Assembly: GCF_009931435.1 (NCBI RefSeq)
Contig: NZ_CP043414.1
Direction: 5' to 3' (one strand)
From: Escherichia coli
Lineage (GTDB): Bacteria; Pseudomonadota; Gammaproteobacteria; Enterobacterales; Enterobacteriaceae
Length of the DNA stretch: 64,000 nt
Of this stretch, positions 12,685-63,920 are shown piece after piece. Every line of letters begins with the position of its first letter. The first letter of the stretch is position 1. Position numbers and translations under genes: made by a program. The notes beneath the pieces were generated by a model, which made no database searches, was not told the DNA's origin, and saw only the letters and a list, made by a program, of their open reading frames with translations.

Positions 12685-13770
12685 TTAGCTCCTGTTCTTA
12701 TCTAATTGTGCATTTCGCAATTTATCGTTCAGCACCAATATTTCACCAACTGTTTGTTCAAAACGCCCGGACTCAAGTTCAACCCCAATCGTGCGACGCC
12801 CCAATCCCATTGCTGCTTTTATTGTTGCCCCCGATCCCATAAAAAAATCCGCAACCACATCCCCCGGACGACTGCTGGCAGAAATTATCTGACGCAACAT
12901 ATCCGCCGGTTTTTCGCAGGGATGCTTACCCGGATAATACTGCACGGGCTTATGCGTCCAGACGTCCGTATAAGGAACGGCGGCCGATACAGAAAAATAA
13001 CGCCGCAGAGATTTGTATTCCTCAAGCAGACTGGCATATTGCCGGTTCAGTTCACTGTATGTGCTGACCAGTTGCTGGTGTGGCGTTGCCAGCTCCCCAC
13101 GCTGGTGCTTTTCTTCTGCAACACACGCGAACAGCGCCTGCAGTTTTCTGTAATCAGCTTCGTTCGGTAACTGCCACTGACAGGTACCAAACCAGTGCGA
13201 CACCATGTTTTTCTTTCCGGTGGCTTCCGCTATCTGTTTGGACGTTATCCCCAGTGATTCACGCGCATCACGGAAGTAAGAAATCAGCGGGGCCATGACG
13301 TGTTGTTTAAGCTCGCGCTCCTTTGCCGCATAGCCATCATTTTTTGGCTGGTATGGCCCCTGATAATGTTCGGCAAACAGAATGCGCTCTGTTGCCGGGA
13401 AATACGCCCGCAGGCTTTCTTTGTTGCACCCGTTCCAGCGTCCGGATGGCTTCGCCCAGATAATGTGGTTCAGCACATTAAAGCGCTCACGCATCATGAT
13501 TTCGGTGTCAGATGCCAGGCGATGACCACAGAACAGGTAGAGACTTCCGGCAGGTTTCAGTACCCGCCAGAACTGAGCCAGACACTGATCCAGCCATTTC
13601 AGGTAATCATCGTCGCCCTTCCACTGGTTATCCCAGCCCTCGGGCTTCACTTTAAAGTATGGCGGGTCTGTGACTATCAGATCGACAGAGTTTTCCGGTA
13701 AGGTCTGGATAAATTCCAGGCAATCAGCGTTGATTAACTCACAACTGGATATTTTTACAGTATCAACCAT
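12685..13770 (-). CDS. Orphan DNA methyltransferase (N6-adenine/N4-cytosine type, beta class: motif IV DPPY before motif I FxGxG)
   Basis: LIVTDPPYF near the N-terminus and DFFMGSGAT near the C-terminus; no adjacent restriction endonuclease ORF. Confidence 0.8.
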   Translation of the reverse strand: MVDTVKISSCELINADCLEFIQTLPENSVDLIVTDPPYFKVKPEGWDNQWKGDDDYLKWLDQCLAQFWRVLKPAGSLYLFCGHRLASDTEIMMRERFNVLNHIIWAKPSGRWNGCNKESLRAYFPATERILFAEHYQGPYQPKNDGYAAKERELKQHVMAPLISYFRDARESLGITSKQIAEATGKKNMVSHWFGTCQWQLPNEADYRKLQALFACVAEEKHQRGELATPHQQLVSTYSELNRQYASLLEEYKSLRRYFSVSAAVPYTDVWTHKPVQYYPGKHPCEKPADMLRQIISASSRPGDVVADFFMGSGATIKAAMGLGRRTIGVELESGRFEQTVGEILVLNDKLRNAQLDKNRS

Positions 13771-15259: not shown

Positions 15260-15931
15260 CTATGAAAATGCCGCCTTTTGTTTTGAACGTGTTCCCTCCA
15301 CCAACAATAAAGCTTCACCATCCAGCCGATGAAAAATGTGTTTCATTGCAACCCAGTGACCAGTAAATGTCTTGGACCAGTTTTTGGTTGTTACTCCCAC
15401 CAGTAACGCCAGTTCCTGGTATTCGTAACCTTCCCCACCAAAAAGCTCAGCTTTTACCGCCTGCGCCGCCAACCAGATCAACGTCTTCAGGCGCACCAGA
15501 GTTTTTCCTGCAATTTTTCTGGTACCGGATTGAGCATTAAATTCAGTCCACGCCCACTGCGTTATCGCGATCTGATGCTCCCAGCAAATGCTACCGCTGT
15601 AACACCACAGCAGCCAGGCTTTATGATGTTCTTCAAGAGACAGAACGGCGCGTCGCCATGATGATGTCGAAAACTCAACCGGACTGACCAGGGCAATTGA
15701 TGAACCTTTCGCCAGCGATTGCTTTCCCGGGATCGGTGGATTATCCAGCGTTACTATTTTTCCAGTGACCTTATCGCGGCACCGGATTTTTTTACGTCTG
15801 TAACGCCCTGTATTGAACATGGCATTCTCCTGCCAGGCTTCAAGCTGACCTTTTGTTGCTCCACTCAAATCAGCGGTGGCGATCGTGAGCTGCTCACGCA
15901 CAAACTGTAAATACTGGTTATTCATGCGCAC
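15260..15931 (-). CDS. Putative late-gene antiterminator (Q-like), assigned by position
   Basis: 223-aa ORF immediately downstream of rusA and upstream of the lysis region; sequence family not recognised with certainty. Confidence 0.4.
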   Translation of the reverse strand: MRMNNQYLQFVREQLTIATADLSGATKGQLEAWQENAMFNTGRYRRKKIRCRDKVTGKIVTLDNPPIPGKQSLAKGSSIALVSPVEFSTSSWRRAVLSLEEHHKAWLLWCYSGSICWEHQIAITQWAWTEFNAQSGTRKIAGKTLVRLKTLIWLAAQAVKAELFGGEGYEYQELALLVGVTTKNWSKTFTGHWVAMKHIFHRLDGEALLLVEGTRSKQKAAFS

Positions 15932-17738: not shown

Positions 17739-18233
17739 TTAGTTTTGCTGTTCTATTCTAAGCTTGATAGTTTCATACAAAACAATAGTTGCGCCTGTTT
17801 TACATAATTCCCGGCTGTCATACGCGCGAGACCAATAACACAACCAGTTCTCGAGATCTTCTCGAGTATAGGTTTTGCAGGCCAGTCCCTCTGCCATTTC
17901 CACGATTTCATCGCCTGGTGCTGTTAACTCATAGCCATTCAACAACAAGAAGACGTAACCAGCCATCATAGCTGTTCGTTTGTTCGCATTAGCAAACGGA
18001 TGATTCTGAATCAGACTTTCAATCAATACCGATGCCAGTACAAACATGTCATTAGTCTGTTCATACCATCGAACCATGCTGGGACGGGCCTGAGAAGAAC
18101 TTAAGTTATCTGGACTCAGAACACCAACGGGCTCATCTGGCGTCTGTAATTCAATTAGGGAACGATTGATTTCAACAAGATCATCAACCGTAAGGTAATG
18201 CACTCCTTCAACAATCTCAGCCATAGAGCACAA
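17739..18233 (-). CDS. doc: Doc/Fic-family toxin (death-on-curing-like)
   Basis: Motif HPFANANKRTA matches the Fic/Doc signature HxFx(D/N)(A/G)NKR. Confidence 0.8.
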   Translation of the reverse strand: MCSMAEIVEGVHYLTVDDLVEINRSLIELQTPDEPVGVLSPDNLSSSQARPSMVRWYEQTNDMFVLASVLIESLIQNHPFANANKRTAMMAGYVFLLLNGYELTAPGDEIVEMAEGLACKTYTREDLENWLCYWSRAYDSRELCKTGATIVLYETIKLRIEQQN

Positions 18234-18242
18234 TACCCATCA

Positions 18243-18470
18243 TTACACTTTTGAAAGTTCTTCCATGGCTTTCTCATAACGAGAAAAACCGAAATCAAAA
18301 GCATTTTTCACTTGTTCACGATGTGCGCAGTTTTCATCAATCGCTGGGCGAGGGACTGCCACAACGCTTTTATCGCGAGGCGGAATACTCAACCGCGTGT
18401 GTTTTTTGAGTGGGCAGCTCATACTAATGAGTCCTTTTGTTTTCCGATTATTGGCAAAGCCATGCACCAA
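18243..18470 (-). CDS. Putative antitoxin for Doc (not obviously Phd-like); start uncertain
   Basis: Small ORF immediately upstream of doc with a 9-nt gap; typical antitoxin-toxin gene order. Confidence 0.45.
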   Translation of the reverse strand: MVHGFANNRKTKGLISMSCPLKKHTRLSIPPRDKSVVAVPRPAIDENCAHREQVKNAFDFGFSRYEKAMEELSKV

Positions 18471-18637: not shown

Positions 18638-18793
18638 TTACTCCTCAGGTTCGTAAGCTGTGAAGACAGCGACCTCCGTCTGGCCGGTTCGGATTCGTAC
18701 CTCGCAGAGGTCTTTCCTCGTTACCAGTGCCGTCACAATGACGGTTAAACAGATGACGATCAGGGCGATTAACATCGCCTTTTGCTGCTTCAT
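18638..18793 (-). CDS. hok: Hok/Gef-family type I toxin (HokD/RelF-like, 51 aa)
   Basis: MKQQKAMLIALIVICLTVIVTALVTRKDLCEVRIRTGQTEVAVFTAYEPEE matches recalled HokD/RelF; the ORF track extends the frame upstream. The sok antisense RNA is expected around 18.8-18.95 kb but is not mapped. Confidence 0.85.
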   Translation of the reverse strand: MKQQKAMLIALIVICLTVIVTALVTRKDLCEVRIRTGQTEVAVFTAYEPEE

Positions 18794-19640
18794 AGCCTGC
18801 TTCTCCTTGCCTTTCGGCACGTAAGAGGCTAACCTAGATTTGCCGTTCATAGATTGAGCCTCAGATTAATGTTAAGCGTCTTGCAGGACGCGTAATGTTA
18901 ACTGGGGCTTTTCTATATCTGCCTTTGGTGTTCATGCCTGAGACAGATAGCCTCAAGCACCCGCAGCCATTGTACTTAACTCCCGTTACCTCGCCAATAT
19001 AAAATCAATCAGAAAGGCGATCCATAAGGACAATAGCAAGACAATAAATTGCCATTACCCGCAATAGCCAGCGCACATTTGAGGACCAGCACGACAACTT
19101 TCTGTATCGGACGTACACCAGTCCTGATAAATACAAGGCGGTCTCATCAGTGATGAAATGCAACTATTGAGTACAGTTTCTCTGATTTTTCTGTAAAACA
19201 TGGAACACAACAACTAAATATAACTAGCACTTCTTAAGATGTACAAATTCAGAGTTAAGATAACGTAAGCAGTTTTCTCAAAACTAAGTGTAAATTTTTA
19301 ATGAAGAGCAGTGCTATGCTCCTGATCATATATTCATTGTTTGGAACTGGAGGAATATTTAGGTTGCTGGAGTGGTTGATTGAATTTAAATCAACTAAGA
19401 CAAAAACCAACAATTAAAGATATGTGGTATATCAGAAAACAACTATCCGTATATTACTACAGAATTAAATACTAGCAACAAAGCTGTCTTTATTGATTTT
19501 TTATCTGATATCGAAATAAATAAACATAAAATAACCAACTAATTAAAACAGAGACTCGACAATGAGCCTCTATCTATTGTAACAGCACTTCCAAATTTAT
19601 TTTAGTAAGATAATAGCATGGGGCATACTAGCCCCATCTT

Positions 19641-21143
19641 TTAAACCGTTTCATCAAGGAAATACTTAGACGAATCATCCTGTTTCGGTTGATATGTTTT
19701 TTTTGCAGAATTAAGAACTCTTCTTAGTTCTTTTCTTAACTCAGGTAAACGCTCCTGAAGAGGGTTAGAACACCATTGTGAAGGCAACCCTCTTATAATA
19801 GCTTCGGAACAAAGCGGTGAAATAAGTTTTTCCATTTGATAATAGAAAGTTTTTGCTCGACTTACACGCATTGTGATCCTTTTTATTACATCTCTTTCAG
19901 ACTCAATTCTAGCACTCAGATCTCTTAATCTACTCCATACCTTAGCATCAGCAATATATGTATCATAAAGCATACACTCTATAAACGTGAAATTACTAAT
20001 AAGTTCTTTTGCAATATACCCCCCCAGCCGAGAAGGAATGAAACTTGATGAAGCTGTTGGATCTCCGTGATTTACGGTGAACAAAAACCTTTTATTGCAT
20101 AAATCAACGAGAACTCGATGCGTGAAAGAGTCACCTATACCAATTAACCTTAACTTTTCAGTTATTACCGAACCATCGATTTGTCTGAATCCGGGATCGC
20201 TTGCATACGAAACGATAACATTAAGAATGTACAGCCTCAATAATTGCATTTGTGTCACAGCTAAATTCGAATCAAACGGGTTCGCAATAGTCGACGTTGA
20301 CTCGCTATAAGTCAACTCAGTACCCAGTAATATAGCTCTAAATGCCTCATGACGTGGAAGAAGATATCTTCCTTGTTCTCTGAAAATTTGTACTGCTTTA
20401 CCTGGACTCGTATACCCTCTTTCTAAGAACTCACGAGTCATACGTAATGCTAATCGAACATCATCCGTAGCAAGAACTTCAATACGTGTTCCAATCTCAC
20501 TTCCCAGCACAGACCCACTAATAATATCGACTAATTGTGATATATCATCCAATACAACTTTAGCGCCATTTTCTGCAATAAAATTTCCACTTTTATTACT
20601 TGTCATATACTTTACTAGTGCAAAGCGTTTTGCAATCACACTACTTATTCTCGGTGGATCTATTTGTATAACTTCAAAATCGAAAGCATCTATAGCAGGT
20701 GAGTTTTTATGTTTGATAAATGTAGACTGCCTCAATGAAAGTACTAAATTTAATGAAAGCGCTCTGGAAATTGAAAATGACTCGGTAAATATCCGGGACT
20801 GGATATCATCAAACTCGATCTGATCAACGTTATCAATAACAAGAAAAAAAGATGTCTCTTTTGTAACACGACTTATTATTTTATCAACATAAGGTTTTAT
20901 CTTTTTATATTGTTCATATAAAAAATCCGAGATTCTGGTATTTTTTTGATCCTCACTCAATAAAAAAAGAGGTCCTGATTTTATCGCCTCAATATCTTCT
21001 CGAAATGCATCAAATACAAAATCCTTATTACTCAAAACAGGATGCTTATTGATATATTCCAGAATTGATTTATAAATAAAATCGACTATTGAACTTTCTG
21101 ATGGATTATCTAGAAAGTCTATATGAACCCAATGCGGCGTCAA
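19641..21143 (-). CDS. 3' ORF of split nuclease-NTPase gene: Walker B-like FFLVIDNVD plus ~400-aa C-terminal region; track start is TTG and the frame is open further upstream
   Basis: Same strand as, and overlapping frame with, the upstream ORF across an A8 tract; hhhhDxxD motif ~100 aa into the ORF; AT-rich. Confidence 0.6.
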   Translation of the reverse strand: MTPHWVHIDFLDNPSESSIVDFIYKSILEYINKHPVLSNKDFVFDAFREDIEAIKSGPLFLLSEDQKNTRISDFLYEQYKKIKPYVDKIISRVTKETSFFLVIDNVDQIEFDDIQSRIFTESFSISRALSLNLVLSLRQSTFIKHKNSPAIDAFDFEVIQIDPPRISSVIAKRFALVKYMTSNKSGNFIAENGAKVVLDDISQLVDIISGSVLGSEIGTRIEVLATDDVRLALRMTREFLERGYTSPGKAVQIFREQGRYLLPRHEAFRAILLGTELTYSESTSTIANPFDSNLAVTQMQLLRLYILNVIVSYASDPGFRQIDGSVITEKLRLIGIGDSFTHRVLVDLCNKRFLFTVNHGDPTASSSFIPSRLGGYIAKELISNFTFIECMLYDTYIADAKVWSRLRDLSARIESERDVIKRITMRVSRAKTFYYQMEKLISPLCSEAIIRGLPSQWCSNPLQERLPELRKELRRVLNSAKKTYQPKQDDSSKYFLDETV

Positions 21144-21147
21144 GATA

Positions 21148-22146
21148 TCACATTGATTTGAAAAAAAACTCTTTTATTCTAACCTTTCTCATGTAATGAA
21201 GAAATGTTGTTTTACCTGCACCTACAGTCCCAAGTAACAAGATCGCGAGAGGTTTGTCATTCCTGACTTTTATTTTTTTCTTCCCTTTAACCTGAAACTT
21301 ATCAACTATTCTTTTTGTATCTTTATCATTAAGCCCTTTTAGTACTTCACCATTCAGCACACTTGAACGCCTACCTATATTCATTCTAATTTTACTATCG
21401 AATCTCATAGTTTCTGGTGTTGAAACATAACATTTATCAAAGGAGTCTTCATCCAAGTAAAGTATAGAATCAGAAAAAGCCAACCTTAATTCATCAGCAA
21501 TCAAATGATATATTGGATTATTTGTCTGTGTTCTGTTTTGTTGCGAATAAAAATTTCTTAATTTTCTAAATTCTATTTGATTTTCGACGCGACCTAAAAG
21601 TGCTGTTTCTAGACTTCCTGATATAACATTTTCACGACTAAGTAAATCATAGAATTCTTGATAATTATCATTTAAGCAATCTTCTAACGACCAGAACACA
21701 AGCGCTATTGAATCATTAAATTTGACATTGTCATGCCTCTGAGCTGCAAAACATGCCCATACATTTCCATTCGTAGCGACAGCATAATCTATACCAAATT
21801 TCCTGGCGTAATCTCTAGCTTGTATTATCGCTTCACCAAGATCACTTTGTAAAAAACTATTACTTAGCTTTATTTTTCTTTTTCCTGGAATTGTACTAAA
21901 GCTTGGCCCTGCCTTTTTAGCTTCAACAACAAGAGCAATATTAGCTGTTTTTAGTATATAATCAGCATAAGTTGTCAAACCATCTTCAGTCACATGCTCT
22001 TCTGGTTTTATATCACTATCAGTCCACATCAAGACTTCCTTTAATACCCGATCTATCACTTTTAGTCTTGTGGCTGCTTCATTTGCATTTTCTAATTGTA
22101 AATGATGATAAGCTGATAATATTTCCGAAATAAATGTTTTCTCCAT
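21148..22146 (-). CDS. 5' ORF of split nuclease-NTPase gene: N-terminal PD-(D/E)xK (HsdR-N/Mrr-like) nuclease domain plus Walker A P-loop
   Basis: N-terminus ANEAATRLKVIDRVL...YADYILKT...ALVVEAKK...QARDYA...YAVATNG (restriction-endonuclease-like fold); C-terminus LAILLLGTVGAGKTTFLHYM (GxxGxGKT), then a stop 22 codons later inside the homopolymer. Confidence 0.65.
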   Translation of the reverse strand: MEKTFISEILSAYHHLQLENANEAATRLKVIDRVLKEVLMWTDSDIKPEEHVTEDGLTTYADYILKTANIALVVEAKKAGPSFSTIPGKRKIKLSNSFLQSDLGEAIIQARDYARKFGIDYAVATNGNVWACFAAQRHDNVKFNDSIALVFWSLEDCLNDNYQEFYDLLSRENVISGSLETALLGRVENQIEFRKLRNFYSQQNRTQTNNPIYHLIADELRLAFSDSILYLDEDSFDKCYVSTPETMRFDSKIRMNIGRRSSVLNGEVLKGLNDKDTKRIVDKFQVKGKKKIKVRNDKPLAILLLGTVGAGKTTFLHYMRKVRIKEFFFKSM

Positions 22147-22856
22147 AGATTATTCTCTCTATAAAAAATAACGAAAATTTTTCTGATTAGTTTTACCGCA
22201 TTTAGTTACAATAACCTAGCTATGTCAAGTCTGATGTTATCCTAAATTTCATTTTTGTTATATTATCCTCTAATTCTTAAGGCACACGTTTGAAAAGCGT
22301 CGACTTTCTCCTGTATGCTCTGAAGGTATCATTTACTCTGATTTTTCACGCAGTGTGCCGGATAGTTTTCTGTCAGGATAGAGCCCTAGATGACACGGAT
22401 GACCGCTGATGACCTGAATATGATCATGTCGCTAACATTCGCCATGGGTAATATTATTAGCCAATCCCGCCCCATCTGTTCATTCTGCTCCTGAATGCCC
22501 CCCCCCCGAAGTCAGCAGACTATGGCCTCGTTGCTGACATGCTCAGAGCCAACTCCTTACCCCCTTACGTAGAAGCAATCTCAGGCACCATTAGTGATTA
22601 CGGTAACCGAGCAGTTGTATTACACCGAACCGACTACCGCTATCATCAACACCTATCTTTGGGGCATAAAAGCGTGGCATAAAGGAAGCAACTAGGCAGT
22701 GATTATGTAAGTACATCTGTAAAACGGACCATCCATTTTAAATATCCTCTGATCCCCCTCAATATCCACCTCTAGCACAAAGCGGACAACCACGCTAGCT
22801 CTCCCCTGTACCATGAAAATTTCAATTCACATATGTATTAATGCTCTTTAGTCTCT

Positions 22857-23279
22857 TCACTTCAATAAATACTGAGAATCCCCCTGATAAAACGACAATA
22901 TGCGCTGCATAACTTCGCTTTTACGGCACTCACTACAAATTATATTATGATGCCTGTCGTAGCGACGTATTTCTCCATCAGGTAATGACCAGATAAGGTC
23001 CGGATCAACCGCAGATGGTTTCTTCAGCTTTGCCCTTGAGAGCTTTTTACGGGCATTTTGCCAGTCCTTACGCGCCTGTTCAGACGGGAATAACCCGTAA
23101 CCAGAGTTGTATACATCGCCACTGGCAACCAGCTCTCTGGCCAGAACGCTCATCAGATATCTTGTTGCCCCAGTTTTAGCTTCCAGTTGTCGTAACGTCT
23201 CTCGCCCGCTCTGGCGTACGAGATCAACAATCTGCCCTTTAATTTTTTCCCGCTCTTCCTGTGTAAATACTTTTGCCAT
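22857..23279 (-). CDS. Hypothetical protein (nin-region)
   Basis: ORF with start set at internal Met (MAKVFTQEE...); unrecognised. Confidence 0.35.
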   Translation of the reverse strand: MAKVFTQEEREKIKGQIVDLVRQSGRETLRQLEAKTGATRYLMSVLARELVASGDVYNSGYGLFPSEQARKDWQNARKKLSRAKLKKPSAVDPDLIWSLPDGEIRRYDRHHNIICSECRKSEVMQRILSFYQGDSQYLLK

Positions 23280-23295
23280 AAGCCCTCCCCTGGAA

Positions 23296-24114
23296 TCACT
23301 TTTCCGACACAATACGACTGGAGGAATCGACAATCTGTCGGACAATATCCCGGTGCTTGTTCAGCTCCCGCAGCGCGGCGCAGACTCGCTCCCACTTCTG
23401 GACATGACTTTTCGCCCGGCGAAGTTCGCGGCTTGCCATATGCAGCGATGGTAAAATCAGGCCATTCGCTCGCGTTTCGGTGAACGATGGCAACGACTGC
23501 ACAATGTCCCCCACAGTATCTGTTTTAATTTCTTCCTGTGTTGCCGCTTCCTGTACTGGTAACGCAACACCGGCTGACTGAGAAAAGGCTTTACCAGGTG
23601 TTTTCGCTACCGATACAACTTTCGGCTCTGCTGGTAAATTTTCCCCGGTTTCTTTTACCAGCATCCACTTACACCCCTTCCCCTGTCCCAGCTTAATCGC
23701 CATGCCATCGCGGCAAAGCTTTTCCATCGCAGAAACCAGCGACCTGACGCAATCAGCACGCCCCACAGCAATTGCAATCTCAGCGGTGGTCATTGCCCCA
23801 CTATGAGCAAGTGTGGACAGGATTTCGCAGCGTTTCAGTGGCTCACGCTCTTTTCTACTGACCACCGGATGGGATTTTCTTTCCACTTTACACACCGTTA
23901 CTTTTTTTTCTTTCACGCCCGTTTGTCGTTCTGAAACAGACCAGTAACCATTAACCGACACAACTTCTCCCAGCTCTTCGTACTCCCTCAGCATTTTAAT
24001 CGCCTCTGCAGGTTCAATGCCCAAACTGGCAGCAAGCTCGGTGCACGTCACCTTTTGCATCGCTTTTAACGTATCAATCAACGTTTCCATCAAAATTTCT
24101 CCCGTTAAAATCAT
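23296..24114 (-). CDS. Hypothetical early protein in the P/helicase-loader position (no Walker A; winged-helix-like repeats)
   Basis: 272-aa ORF downstream of the replication-initiator-like gene; no P-loop seen, so not DnaC-like. Confidence 0.35.
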   Translation of the reverse strand: MILTGEILMETLIDTLKAMQKVTCTELAASLGIEPAEAIKMLREYEELGEVVSVNGYWSVSERQTGVKEKKVTVCKVERKSHPVVSRKEREPLKRCEILSTLAHSGAMTTAEIAIAVGRADCVRSLVSAMEKLCRDGMAIKLGQGKGCKWMLVKETGENLPAEPKVVSVAKTPGKAFSQSAGVALPVQEAATQEEIKTDTVGDIVQSLPSFTETRANGLILPSLHMASRELRRAKSHVQKWERVCAALRELNKHRDIVRQIVDSSSRIVSEK

Positions 24115-24134: not shown

Positions 24135-25097
24135 TTATCCCCTGAACCCTGGCGGAATTTCGGTGTCCGGTTCAGAAATATGATTCACACAACGCTGTAC
24201 AGGCGAACGCCCCAGACGGATAACCAGCTCATCCCATTTATCGCGAAGTTTTGACGGACTCATGATGTTTTTTACCCAGAATGGATCCCGCTGTACCCGA
24301 CCAAACATTTCGCAGATTTGTCTGTGAGTTCTGCCATCCAGCATCCGCATTATGCGCACGTCATTGGCCCATGCTGTCCAGTTGGGTTCTTTCGGTCGGG
24401 TGATCTCGCCATCATCGCTGGCGGCCTGTTCGTAAAGACTCACGATTCGCCCCCAGATCCACTGTGCGCATGCCAAATCCTCCTGATTTCCCCACTGACG
24501 TTTTTTTGCACTAAACACAATCGCATCAGGATGTCGGGTTAAAAAGTCCTGTTCAGCCGTCTGCGGGTCCGGTTGCGAAGCTTCCGGACGAAAAGATCTT
24601 TTATCTGACGGATCAGGTTTTAATACTGACGGATCGGGGCCAACCATCGCCCCCCTAACCGGCTGTTTTTTACAAACGGTTGATCCATCAAAATTTGACG
24701 GGTCAATCGTTGAGGGGGCAATATTTGACTGGTCAACTGTTAACGGGTCATTTTTTGCCGGGCTAATTTTTCTTTTCGGTTTATATGCCTCACGCGCCGC
24801 CTCAGCTGCTGCTTCGAGTTTTTCCACATTAAGGCGGTAGATATTGCTTTCATTACGCCCACCGACCTTACGCTCCTCCTTCGTCAGCCAGCCGTTCTTT
24901 TCCAGTTCCGCTATCGCCGCTTTAACCGTTGATTCACTCTTTGCCCCAATCTGACGACGAATGGTCTCCACTGCAGGCCATGACACACCTTCGTCATTGC
25001 TGTAGTCTGCAAGGCGAGCCATTACTGCCACCCTGGATAAGATCATGCCGGTGAAGGCGCACCCTTCCCAGACAAGACCATGAAGCTTGCTGCTCAT
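24135..25097 (-). CDS. Putative replication initiation protein (O-like position, N-terminal HTH/winged-helix)
   Basis: 320 aa; N-terminal ...LADYSNDEGVSWPAVETIRRQIGAKSESTVKAAIAELEKNGWL... resembles replisome-organiser HTH domains; position after the cro/cII-like genes. Confidence 0.5.
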   Translation of the reverse strand: MSSKLHGLVWEGCAFTGMILSRVAVMARLADYSNDEGVSWPAVETIRRQIGAKSESTVKAAIAELEKNGWLTKEERKVGGRNESNIYRLNVEKLEAAAEAAREAYKPKRKISPAKNDPLTVDQSNIAPSTIDPSNFDGSTVCKKQPVRGAMVGPDPSVLKPDPSDKRSFRPEASQPDPQTAEQDFLTRHPDAIVFSAKKRQWGNQEDLACAQWIWGRIVSLYEQAASDDGEITRPKEPNWTAWANDVRIMRMLDGRTHRQICEMFGRVQRDPFWVKNIMSPSKLRDKWDELVIRLGRSPVQRCVNHISEPDTEIPPGFRG

Positions 25098-58245: not shown

Positions 58246-59256
58246 TTAGATATGGGTAACGATTTCTTTAATCAGCGGCGGTCCTTTAAAAATAAAACCA
58301 GAATAAATTTGCACCAGTGAGGCCCCCGCAGCAATCTTTTCACGCGCAGCGATAACCGAGTCAATGCCGCCAACACCGATGATCGGTAAGCGACCGTTTA
58401 ATTCCTGAGACAAACGGCGAATAATTTCGGTGCTTTTTAACTGTAGCGGACGACCACTTAAGCCACCGGTTTGATCACAATTTTTCATTCCCTGAACCAG
58501 AGAACGATCGAGCGTGGTATTGGTTGCAATAACGCCATCAATATTATGGCGAACTAAACTATCGGCAACCTGGATCAATTCTTCTTCAGAAAGATCCGGC
58601 GCGATCTTCACGGCGATCGGCACATATTTATGGTGCATCGCTTGCAAATCATTTTGCTTATTTTTAATCGCGGTTAAGAGATCATCCAGCGCTTCGCCAT
58701 ATTGCAGTGTGCGTAATCCTGGGGTATTCGGCGATGAAATATTGATGGCGATATATCCCGCATAGGCATAGATTTTTTCCATACAAATCAGATAGTCATC
58801 TTTACCCTGCTCCACCGGCGTATCTTTATTTTTGCCGATATTAATCCCCAGAACACCATCGTAATGAGCTTTTTTTACGTTCTCAACGAGGTTATCAACG
58901 CCGAGATTATTAAAGCCCATACGGTTGATCAAACCTTCGGCATCTACCAGACGAAAGAGACGCGGCTTGTCATTACCTGGCTGTGGACGTGGCGTGACGG
59001 TACCGATCTCGATAGATCCAAACCCCATCGCGCCTAACGCGTCAATGCACTCCCCGTCTTTATCAAGACCGGCTGCCAGACCAAGCGGATTTTTAAACGT
59101 CAGGCCCATGCAGTTAACAGGTTTCGCAGGCACTTTCTGCCGCACCAGTGCTTCAAACGGTGTTCCTGTAATACGGCGTAATTGCTGAAAAGTAAACTCA
59201 TGAGCGCGCTCTGGATCGAGCTGGAAAAGGGCTTTACGAACGAAGGGGTAGTACAT
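58246..59256 (-). CDS. pyrD: Dihydroorotate dehydrogenase (quinone)
   Basis: [21 protein letters not shown]...; 336 aa. Confidence 0.95.
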
Positions 59257-59492
59257 GAACTCTCCTGGATTCCCGGTGTGCAAACCGGGGGCGTATTATG
59301 TGCGAGTTCGGACCAAAAGGGAATTGACCTACGGCAATAAATAGCAAACGTTTTCTTATTGCGCTTTTTTTATGCTTTTTTTGGCTTTGCTTCGTCAGAT
59401 AAATCATTTCGACTCGCGGACGCCCTCTGTCAGACTGACCAAATTGTTATCAATTTTAACAAAACAAGAACAATTGGTTATAAGGAGAGAGT

Positions 59493-63730: not shown

Positions 63731-63920
63731 TGCCGGATGTGGCGCACAAAAACAGCGGTTTCAACGGATTGTAGGCCTGATAAGACGCGTCAAGCGTCGC
63801 ATCAGGCATTTGGGCACGGCTGCCGGATGCGGCGTGAACGCCTTATCCAGCCTACAAAACCAGCATTTTCAACGGACTTGTAGGCCTGATAAGACGCGTC
63901 AAGCGTCGCATCCGGCATTT
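63731..63920. repeat. REP/BIME cluster (two copies of GCCTGATAAGACGCGTCAAGCGTCGCATC(A/C)GGC plus companion palindromes)
   Basis: Near-identical ~33-bp palindromic units at ~63774-63806 and ~63883-63915, typical of E. coli REP elements. Confidence 0.75.

Follow-up and report, generated by a model that had tools for sequence, protein, structure and literature searches.

Among the anti-phage defence families validated experimentally in Escherichia coli, the closest relative of the gene described here is DS-14 (WP_040091717.1; working name RMOR) of the DefensePredictor study, an E. coli protein of 816 aa (PMC13092281; bioRxiv 10.1101/2025.01.08.631726). DS-14 is listed as 'defensive TRUE' and 'replicated TRUE' in the category 'remote defense homolog' (PMC13092281 Tables S6-S8) and, when assayed on a low-copy plasmid in strain MG1655, it acted on three of 24 phages, with -log10 efficiency of plating values of 4.70 for Bas50, 3.70 for Candy, and 1.15 for RB69 (PMC13092281). 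The nature of the construct is uncertain, as the main text speaks of the predicted native promoter and Table S6 flags RMOR as pBAD=TRUE (PMC13092281). By HHpred, its authors recovered bNACHT09 (probability 99, query coverage 0.54) as well as an AAA+ domain like that of ORC1 (7MCA_A; residues 270-569, probability 0.99) (PMC13092281). Here, we describe a divergent member of this family in a window of 64,000 nucleotides (i.e., the whole stretch of DNA that was analysed) from E. coli (NCBI RefSeq assembly GCF_009931435.1, contig NZ_CP043414.1). It occupies positions 19641-22146 of the minus strand, which also carries all of its parts given below, and appears as two open reading frames (ORFs) of 332 and 500 aa. 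We consider it very probable that this locus is a prophage-borne anti-phage defence gene of the DS-14 family that was recently inactivated by a frameshift.

The link to DS-14 was found by searching the DefensePredictor supplements with the Walker A peptide, while the accessions of the window allele are themselves absent from these supplements (PMC13092281). The homologue P0089 differs from WP_040091717.1 by one residue in the ~400 residues that are printed, both proteins being 816 aa long, and the repaired window protein is 47 % identical to P0089 over 820 of its 834 residues (BLASTP, E=0), which makes the window gene a divergent member of the DS-14 family. The homology runs from end to end, with the same domain order, the same invariant nuclease and nucleoside triphosphatase (NTPase) motifs, and a single gene as the unit. 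Furthermore, P0089 is carried by a lambdoid prophage (Rac-like) and has the corresponding location there, with DUF977 on one side and the nin/Q genes on the other. The differences lie in the degree of identity, which defines a distinct subfamily, in the frameshift of the window copy, and in the orientation relative to the prophage operon, the window gene being co-directional whereas P0089 is inverted in locus L003. The original prediction had proposed an antiviral role for a protein that it could not place in a named family. The former gains experimental support through a full-length homologue (PMC13092281), whereas the latter no longer applies, the family being DS-14 and already validated. 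Most of the claimed novelty is thereby lost; the structural reading was largely right, and the novelty was overestimated.

The first ORF (21148-22146; WP_250696197.1) begins with ATG and encodes the nuclease domain, a helical linker, and the Walker A motif, its 3' end consisting of three out-of-frame codons followed by TGA (21148-21150). The second (19641-21143; WP_250696198.1) is called from a TTG (21143) and, relative to the intact protein, spans residues 335-834; it holds the remaining AAA+ domain with Walker B, followed by the lid, the winged helix, and the helices of the C-terminus. Nothing resembling a Shine-Dalgarno sequence can be seen 5' of this TTG. On the coding strand, the junction reads GAG-TTTTTTTT-CAAATCAATG-TGA-TATC-TTG, in which TTTTTTTT occupies the position of a tract of eight T residues (T8; 21161-21168; A8 on the plus strand), as compared to seven (T7) in intact alleles. 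The whole frameshifted gene thus measures 2506 nt, as compared to 2505 nt (834 codons) for intact alleles. Both ORFs and all motifs quoted in the original prediction were recovered, i.e., ATRLKVIDRVL, ALVVEAKK, QARDYA, and YAVATNG in the first ORF, GTVGAGKTT at its C-terminal end, and the Walker B-like FFLVIDNVDQ beginning ~98 residues into the second.

A megablast search with window positions 19400-22400 against 5426 complete E. coli genomes returned seven that match the 3-kb region at 99.6-99.9 % identity. Six of these chromosomes align over 3000 nt, as compared to 3001 nt of the window. The remaining one, that of E. coli strain H7 (NZ_CP010171.1), has the gene split by IS1A after ~525 nt (L023 2330-3027), which represents a further, independent inactivation of the same gene. 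Two of the six uninterrupted copies (L001 and L002) were aligned with the window base by base; each is annotated as one coding sequence of 2505 nt for a 'hypothetical protein' (WP_001349602.1 or WP_112869014.1). The sole indel relative to either copy is one extra T in the tract, and the sole other change from L001 is a synonymous C>T at position 20868, so that removal of one A from the A8 tract, as proposed along with the original prediction, gives a protein identical to WP_001349602.1. Intact homologues in other prophages are likewise single genes rather than two, and the suggestion that both ORFs were originally one gene, split at the A8 tract, is thus borne out. Among NCBI proteins, the intact 834-aa product is found on 335 contigs, WP_250696197.1 on two, and WP_250696198.1 on five; with the look-up of contigs that encode the 500-aa product taken into account, the split products occur on two to eight contigs. 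The match is far above chance, the repaired ORF equalling a protein on 335 contigs whose family has 1280 representatives. The two ORFs are therefore parts of a single prophage gene of 834 codons, disrupted by a +1 frameshift that turned T7 into T8. This frameshift is most likely genuine and also young, given that the allele is otherwise undamaged. An uninterrupted chain of nuclease and AAA+ domain is found in the intact allele (L001; 834 aa) and not in the window copy (332 + 500 aa). Judged from its sequence, the window copy is most likely non-functional, since Walker A and Walker B are encoded on separate polypeptides and the second ORF lacks an evident ribosome-binding site.

A domain map was drawn from an AlphaFold model of the intact protein (predicted local distance difference test, pLDDT, 90). 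The model begins with a PD-(D/E)xK nuclease of the HsdR-N/RecB type (residues 1-175; 21622-22146), followed by a helical linker (residues 176-294; 21265-21621) that is among the two least conserved parts of the protein. The AAA+ nucleotide-binding domain, or base (residues 295-500; 20646-21264), is interrupted by the frameshift. It contains the Walker A motif GxxGxGK(T) (21205-21231), a helical insertion of ~80 residues (353-430) between β2 and β3, the Walker B motif hhhhD438-N439-x-D441-Q (20820-20849), and R472 at the end of β4, the sensor-1 position. The AAA+ lid (residues 501-620; 20286-20645) carries the conserved R507, R564, and H599-E600, with R564 lying in a motif (consensus GNxRxAL; DDVRLAL in the window protein) that resembles the 'GDAR' sensor-2 motif of Cdc6. 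A winged-helix domain of the MarR/ORC type (residues 621-715; 20001-20285) and a C-terminal helical tail (residues 716-834; 19644-20000; the helical part, of ~105 residues, is mapped to 716-820) with conserved D728-T729, R760, R763, and F767 complete the protein, the last ~10 residues of which are predicted to be disordered (pLDDT below 50). Walker A and Walker B thus belong to one predicted fold of the intact protein, a P-loop NTPase that follows the nuclease as originally proposed. By contrast, the ~400 aa that had been put forward as a possible sensor region are mostly the rest of the ATPase module, as the domain map places β4-β5 of the AAA+ domain with the lid, the winged helix, and the ~105-residue helical tail there. 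Fold comparison gave figures of 12.1-12.9 for Cdc6/Orc1, 11.5 for the HsdR N-terminal nuclease (3h1t; 23 % identity over 150 residues), 11.4 for TnsC, 11.1 for BrxC, about 10 for plant and animal NLRs, 9.6 for Avs5, 9.5 for RdrA, and 8.9 for Avs4. Foldseek was in agreement (Orc1/Cdc6, E ~7e-6; Apaf-1, 1e-5; RdrA, 2e-4). On the strength of this model, the ATPase is assigned to the ORC/Cdc6-STAND assemblage, with a winged helix.

The family is widespread. A homology search returned 396 hits among the scored candidates, the best 120 of which are all single polypeptides of 697-878 aa that cover 80-100 % of the query, and a separate search gave the 1280 representatives mentioned above, at the 50 % identity level. 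When full-length, members consist of one polypeptide of ~800-850 aa, and the shorter entries among the 1280 representatives look like metagenome fragments. Named sources of homologues include Escherichia, Klebsiella, Serratia, Aeromonas, Vibrio, Pseudomonas, Cupriavidus, Bordetella, Thauera, Sphingobium, and a metagenome-assembled genome of Melainabacteria. PHROG 14719 is a full-length family match, the function of which is not annotated; a megablast search against a phage collection gave no match, a literature search on WP_001349602 found nothing, and the family is not mentioned in the NAR 2026 domain-centric screen. In an alignment of 80 sequences with 20-71 % identity to the query, D62, E75, K77, and Q109 of the nuclease (D...ExK...QxxxY) are invariant and Y113 is present in 99 %. 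The same holds for G306, G311, and K312 of Walker A as well as D438, N439, and D441 of Walker B, while R472, R507, R564, H599, R760, and R763 are nearly invariant. Both catalytic centres are thus under strong conservation. When each of the 80 members was scanned with Pfam (E<=0.001), AAA_16 was significant in 48, AAA_22 in 23, KAP_NTPase in 13, and NACHT and HSDR_N in four members each.

How, then, does this architecture relate to other described systems? The original prediction had likened it to Avs and bNACHT proteins, and part of this likeness stands. As in Avs (Avs1-5; Avs7-24 of PMC12803255) and bNACHT proteins, an N-terminal nuclease effector precedes an NTPase of the ORC/STAND assemblage with a winged helix, the window family possesses a sensor-1 Arg and a D-x-x-D Walker B, and DS-14 has both a narrow phage range and an HHpred match to bNACHT09 at 99 (PMC13092281). 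However, only ~105 residues follow the winged helix here, whereas the sensors that were clustered in the STAND census were those of >=400 aa (PMC12803255); PADLOC profiles for Avs1-5 and NLR gave no match at E<=1, and, as mentioned above, Pfam NACHT is significant in only four of the 80 members. Moreover, ORC/Cdc6 structures are nearer than any STAND structure. Membership in Avs or bNACHT is therefore not established, and the right label is 'DS-14 family'. With Orc1/Cdc6, the protein shares the AAA+ base, the lid, and the C-terminal winged-helix fold, but it differs from these proteins (and from TnsC and MuB) by its fused nuclease, by a Walker B with DN instead of DE, and by the ~80-residue helical insertion between β2 and β3. 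It is furthermore sporadic mobile cargo with natural null alleles, unlike Orc1/Cdc6 as a core replication gene. HsdR (PDB 3h1t; Pfam HSDR_N/HSDR_N_2) offers a similar N-terminal PD-(D/E)xK nuclease with QxxxY, but no SF2 helicase motor was detected in Pfam or fold searches and no HsdM/HsdS genes are among the neighbours. The KAP-type NTPases such as RdrA of RADAR, as well as BrxC of BREX, differ in that no RdrB deaminase or BREX partner is found here and the nuclease is fused in cis. The HsdR, ORC/Cdc6, and RADAR families consequently have only individual domains in common with the window protein.

The surroundings of the gene fit mobile cargo, as the original prediction had also read them: G+C content falls to 0.31-0.40 across 19000-22500 as compared to 0.45-0.56 in the flanks, and the position, between the replication module and Q, is equivalent to the nin region. 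On one side lie an O-like initiator (24135-25097), phrog_630, and a Ren-like/DUF977 gene (22857-23345), and on the other hok/sok, a Doc-like toxin pair, DUF968/HNH, RusA, and Q (15260-15931). Upstream of the gene, an AT-rich and ORF-free spacer of 710 bp (22147-22856, minus strand) is presumed to be the promoter region, and a GC-rich, terminator-like hairpin (19618-19637, minus strand; consensus match only) begins 4 nt past the stop codon. A promoter scan of the spacers was uninformative (17 hits vs 16.1 expected from shuffles), and no tRNA or Rfam elements were found within the nuclease-ATPase locus itself. P0089 (L003 8001-10451; L004 4487-6937) occupies the slot from DUF977 to DUF1367/YbcO/Q (nin) of a Rac-like prophage, inverted with respect to the phage genes, which suggests that, in lambdoid prophages, defence cargo has a hotspot at the DUF977-to-nin junction. 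Other members are found elsewhere: P0037 (836 aa) at the edge of a Pf-type filamentous prophage with Zot and coat B genes in P. aeruginosa (L005-L008), and P0022 in Cupriavidus (L009/L010), adjoining a gene for ParB and the PRTRC genes ThiF, JAB, E2, and Prok_Ub, which form a cluster, and hence on a non-phage mobile element. The neighbours of the gene thus differ between the Qin/Rac-like prophages, the Pf prophage, and the ParB/PRTRC element. Two small same-strand ORFs (97 and 231 aa) precede P0037 and might belong with it. In four different contexts, no methyltransferase, specificity gene, or other partner is conserved beside the gene, and by its neighbour pattern the family is a stand-alone cargo ('moron') gene.

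Several other features of the window were noted along the way. A complete type I toxin-antitoxin locus of the hok/sok type (18638-18962, minus strand) lies ~680 bp downstream of the gene, with sok RNA at 18788-18962 (Rfam RF01794; 105 bits) and a Mok/Hok ORF at 18638-18850 (phrog_251). On the same strand, positions 17739-18470 hold two further ORFs, a small one (listed at 75 aa), the C-terminal 59 residues of which match phrog_2208, followed by one for a Doc-like toxin (listed at 164 aa; phrog_577) that has an HxFx(D/N)ANKR-like motif; together, they probably form a Phd/Doc-type module. With this module beside hok/sok, the inter-module slot therefore carries three successive accessory cassettes, i.e., the defence pseudogene, hok/sok, and doc. 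A 361-aa ORF (12685-13770, minus strand) has the same length as a 'DNA-methyltransferase' annotated downstream of Q in the related prophage L001 (16075-17160) and, by length alone, possibly represents an orphan methyltransferase of the phage. At 59251-59324 and 63774-63852, a PyrD leader (RF02373) and naRNA4 (RF02564) show that the window consists of host chromosome at its right end.

The homopolymer at which the window copy is broken also varies in other isolates, where it is found as T6 or as T7 with loss of the next C (delta-C). An allele look-up keyed on contigs that encode the 500-aa product, and thus biased toward lesions near the tract, yielded seven loci (L012-L018; isolates and metagenome assemblies), in which the tract sits ~24 nt past the anchor ATGAGAAAGGT. 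L016 (SRR7527707) carries T8 as in the window, L012, L013, L014, L017, and L018 carry T6, and L015 has T7 with the following C deleted, leading to TAA. These tract alleles lie on at least three backgrounds of single-nucleotide polymorphisms (SNPs): the 20868 SNP is common to the window and L016, L012 and L013 share another SNP, and L018 is on an L002-like background. In L019, the SNP linked to the window allele occurs together with an intact T7. At least four independent inactivating events have thus hit a single tract (T8, delta-C, and T6, the last on two or more SNP backgrounds), and the presence of T6, T8, and delta-C alleles on different backgrounds marks it as a recurrent loss-of-function site. 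A 398-aa cluster member (P0275; 58 contigs) was considered as a common truncated allele and rejected as a gene-calling artefact at contig ends, because its contigs begin at differing points inside the intact gene.

As to the mode of action, we tentatively favour a switch-and-oligomerise mechanism, which we hold with slightly less than even confidence. In the intact 834-aa protein, the predicted order is an HsdR-N/RecB-type PD-(D/E)xK nuclease, a helical linker, an AAA+ domain of the ORC/Cdc6-STAND class, a winged helix, and a short helical tail. The NTPase would act as a nucleotide-dependent switch, not as a motor: a phage-specific cue (a protein or a DNA structure) would lead to oligomerisation via the AAA+/winged-helix module, which would gather the N-terminal nucleases and result in DNA cutting and arrest of the infection. 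The DNxD Walker B, with Asn where motors carry Glu, and the Arg at the end of β4 recall STAND switches. It is these two features, along with the analogy to STAND/Avs proteins, the N-terminal effector, and the narrow range of DS-14 (three of 24 phages), that favour the switch model. A further, rather unlikely reading is that the DS-14 family is an immune sensor derived from replication initiators, the ORC/Cdc6-like AAA+ domain and winged helix of which would assemble directly on phage DNA and fire the fused HsdR-type nuclease; targets may be, for example, origins or replication intermediates of large lytic myoviruses.

A number of observations weigh against this picture. With the single sequence as query, PADLOC 2.0 returned only mREase_II (2.9e-4, 48 residues) and PbeC (0.03), NCBIfam gave P-loop noise without a significant family match, and Pfam likewise yielded no significant family (best match G-alpha, 0.002; NACHT, E 0.76); in the PDB, neither sequence nor profile searches went beyond P-loop matches. 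The AlphaFold model contains no TPR, LRR, or WD40-type sensor and no large sensor of the Avs type. In the text of the DS-14 study, the sole description of the protein is that it has PD-(D/E)xK identity and large additional domains, and neither mutants nor a mechanism are reported (PMC13092281). The protective function of the window subfamily is carried over by analogy from DS-14, from which it is set apart as a distinct subfamily at 47 % identity. The best structural neighbours (ORC/Cdc6 and TnsC) are DNA binders, which speaks for direct recognition of DNA rather than for a protein trigger as in Avs. Lastly, low-level rescue of T8 by transcriptional or translational slippage on U8 could yield traces of full-length protein.

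The reality and meaning of the frameshift can be questioned in three ways. Homopolymer length errors are frequent in long-read assemblies, and the allele shows no other damage (one synonymous change in 2.5 kb), so the extra T might be a sequencing or assembly error in an organism whose gene is intact. However, T8 and the linked C>T recur in the assembly of a separate read set (L016; SRR7527707), albeit possibly from the same strain as the window source, both split products are deposited as NCBI proteins (on two to five contigs), and the T6 and delta-C alleles in six more assemblies represent real variation at the tract. We therefore regard an error as decidedly improbable. Alternatively, the tract could be a phase-variation (contingency) switch, or T8 could be partly active through polymerase or ribosome slippage on U8, the window then showing an 'OFF or low' state. 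For E. coli, slippage on runs of A or T is known, T6 arose on separate backgrounds (L012/L013, L014/L017, and L018) in addition to T8 and delta-C in L015, L019 pairs the window SNP with an intact T7, and the T8 allele is otherwise free of damage; the T7 tract could allow a costly nuclease to be turned ON and OFF reversibly. Yet seven to eight T are short for a contingency tract, the look-up keyed on the 500-aa product favours this very site, and the IS1 insertion in strain H7 shows that plain loss also happens. The Phe-Phe codons that form the tract are missing from both DS-14 and the Klebsiella allele (KEIFSN), so that the tract is unlikely to have evolved as a phase-variation device, and we judge this alternative improbable as a whole. 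That the ORFs form a genuine two-subunit system, with a nuclease/Walker A and a Walker B/winged-helix subunit, might be argued from the distance of 4 nt between stop and TTG, which could permit translational coupling. The full-length homologues are uniformly single polypeptides, however, and the reading was rejected on this ground. The break moreover falls inside the AAA+ core (between β1/α1 and β2), and split alleles are rare and unlike each other, which leaves two subunits extremely improbable.

Two further alternatives concern the function of the intact protein. Its ORC/Cdc6-like fold and the location directly downstream of the replication module, beside the O-like gene, would also suit a phage replication or recombination factor, i.e., an ORC-like initiator with a nuclease. 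Against this stand its nature as variable AT-rich cargo, present as this allele in only seven of the 5426 complete E. coli genomes, the homologues that adjoin a filamentous Pf prophage or reside on a ParB/PRTRC element, the inverted orientation relative to the phage operon in L003, the protection by DS-14 when cloned alone, and the null alleles in natural isolates, all of which render a replication factor very improbable. More weight attaches to a DNA-directed, restriction-like enzyme, in which the ORC/Cdc6-like AAA+ domain and winged helix load on phage DNA in the manner of Orc1/Cdc6, TnsC, or MuB; the target could be a particular structure, modification state, or replication intermediate, which the HsdR-type nuclease could cut without abortive infection. 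The C-terminal winged helix of the MarR/ORC type, the fold match to ORC/Cdc6, the model devoid of a repeat sensor, and the DefensePredictor HHpred match to ORC1 (7MCA_A, residues 270-569, probability 0.99; PMC13092281) speak for such an enzyme. On the other hand, no adjacent methyltransferase or specificity partner is conserved and self/non-self discrimination is therefore not evident, the Walker B without a catalytic Glu (invariant N439) is ill-suited to a motor, and DS-14 is active on only three of 24 phages, with bNACHT09 also recovered by HHpred at probability 99 (PMC13092281). On balance, we consider a DNA-directed enzyme somewhat unlikely and retain the nucleotide-dependent switch as our working model.

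In summary of what the locus means, a widespread enterobacterial prophage 'hypothetical protein' (PHROG 14719; WP_001349602.1) is assigned to an experimentally validated defence family, and the DS-14 family gains a domain map consisting of an HsdR-type nuclease, an ORC/Cdc6-STAND AAA+ domain, and a winged helix, without a large sensor. The junction from the DUF977/Ren-like gene to hok/nin in lambdoid prophages emerges as a slot in which defence genes and toxin-antitoxin modules are carried as cargo. Null alleles have arisen repeatedly (T8, T6, delta-C, and IS1), which suggests that the gene is often lost, and, with the gene being null, a defence annotation at this locus would be a false positive when phage susceptibility is predicted from genomes. 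The remaining interest lies in the mechanism of the family and in its repeated inactivation at one homopolymer. If the DS-14 family does prove to be an initiator-derived sensor, it would represent a methylation-independent recognition of foreign DNA, unlike both restriction-modification and the protein-sensing Avs/NLR systems.

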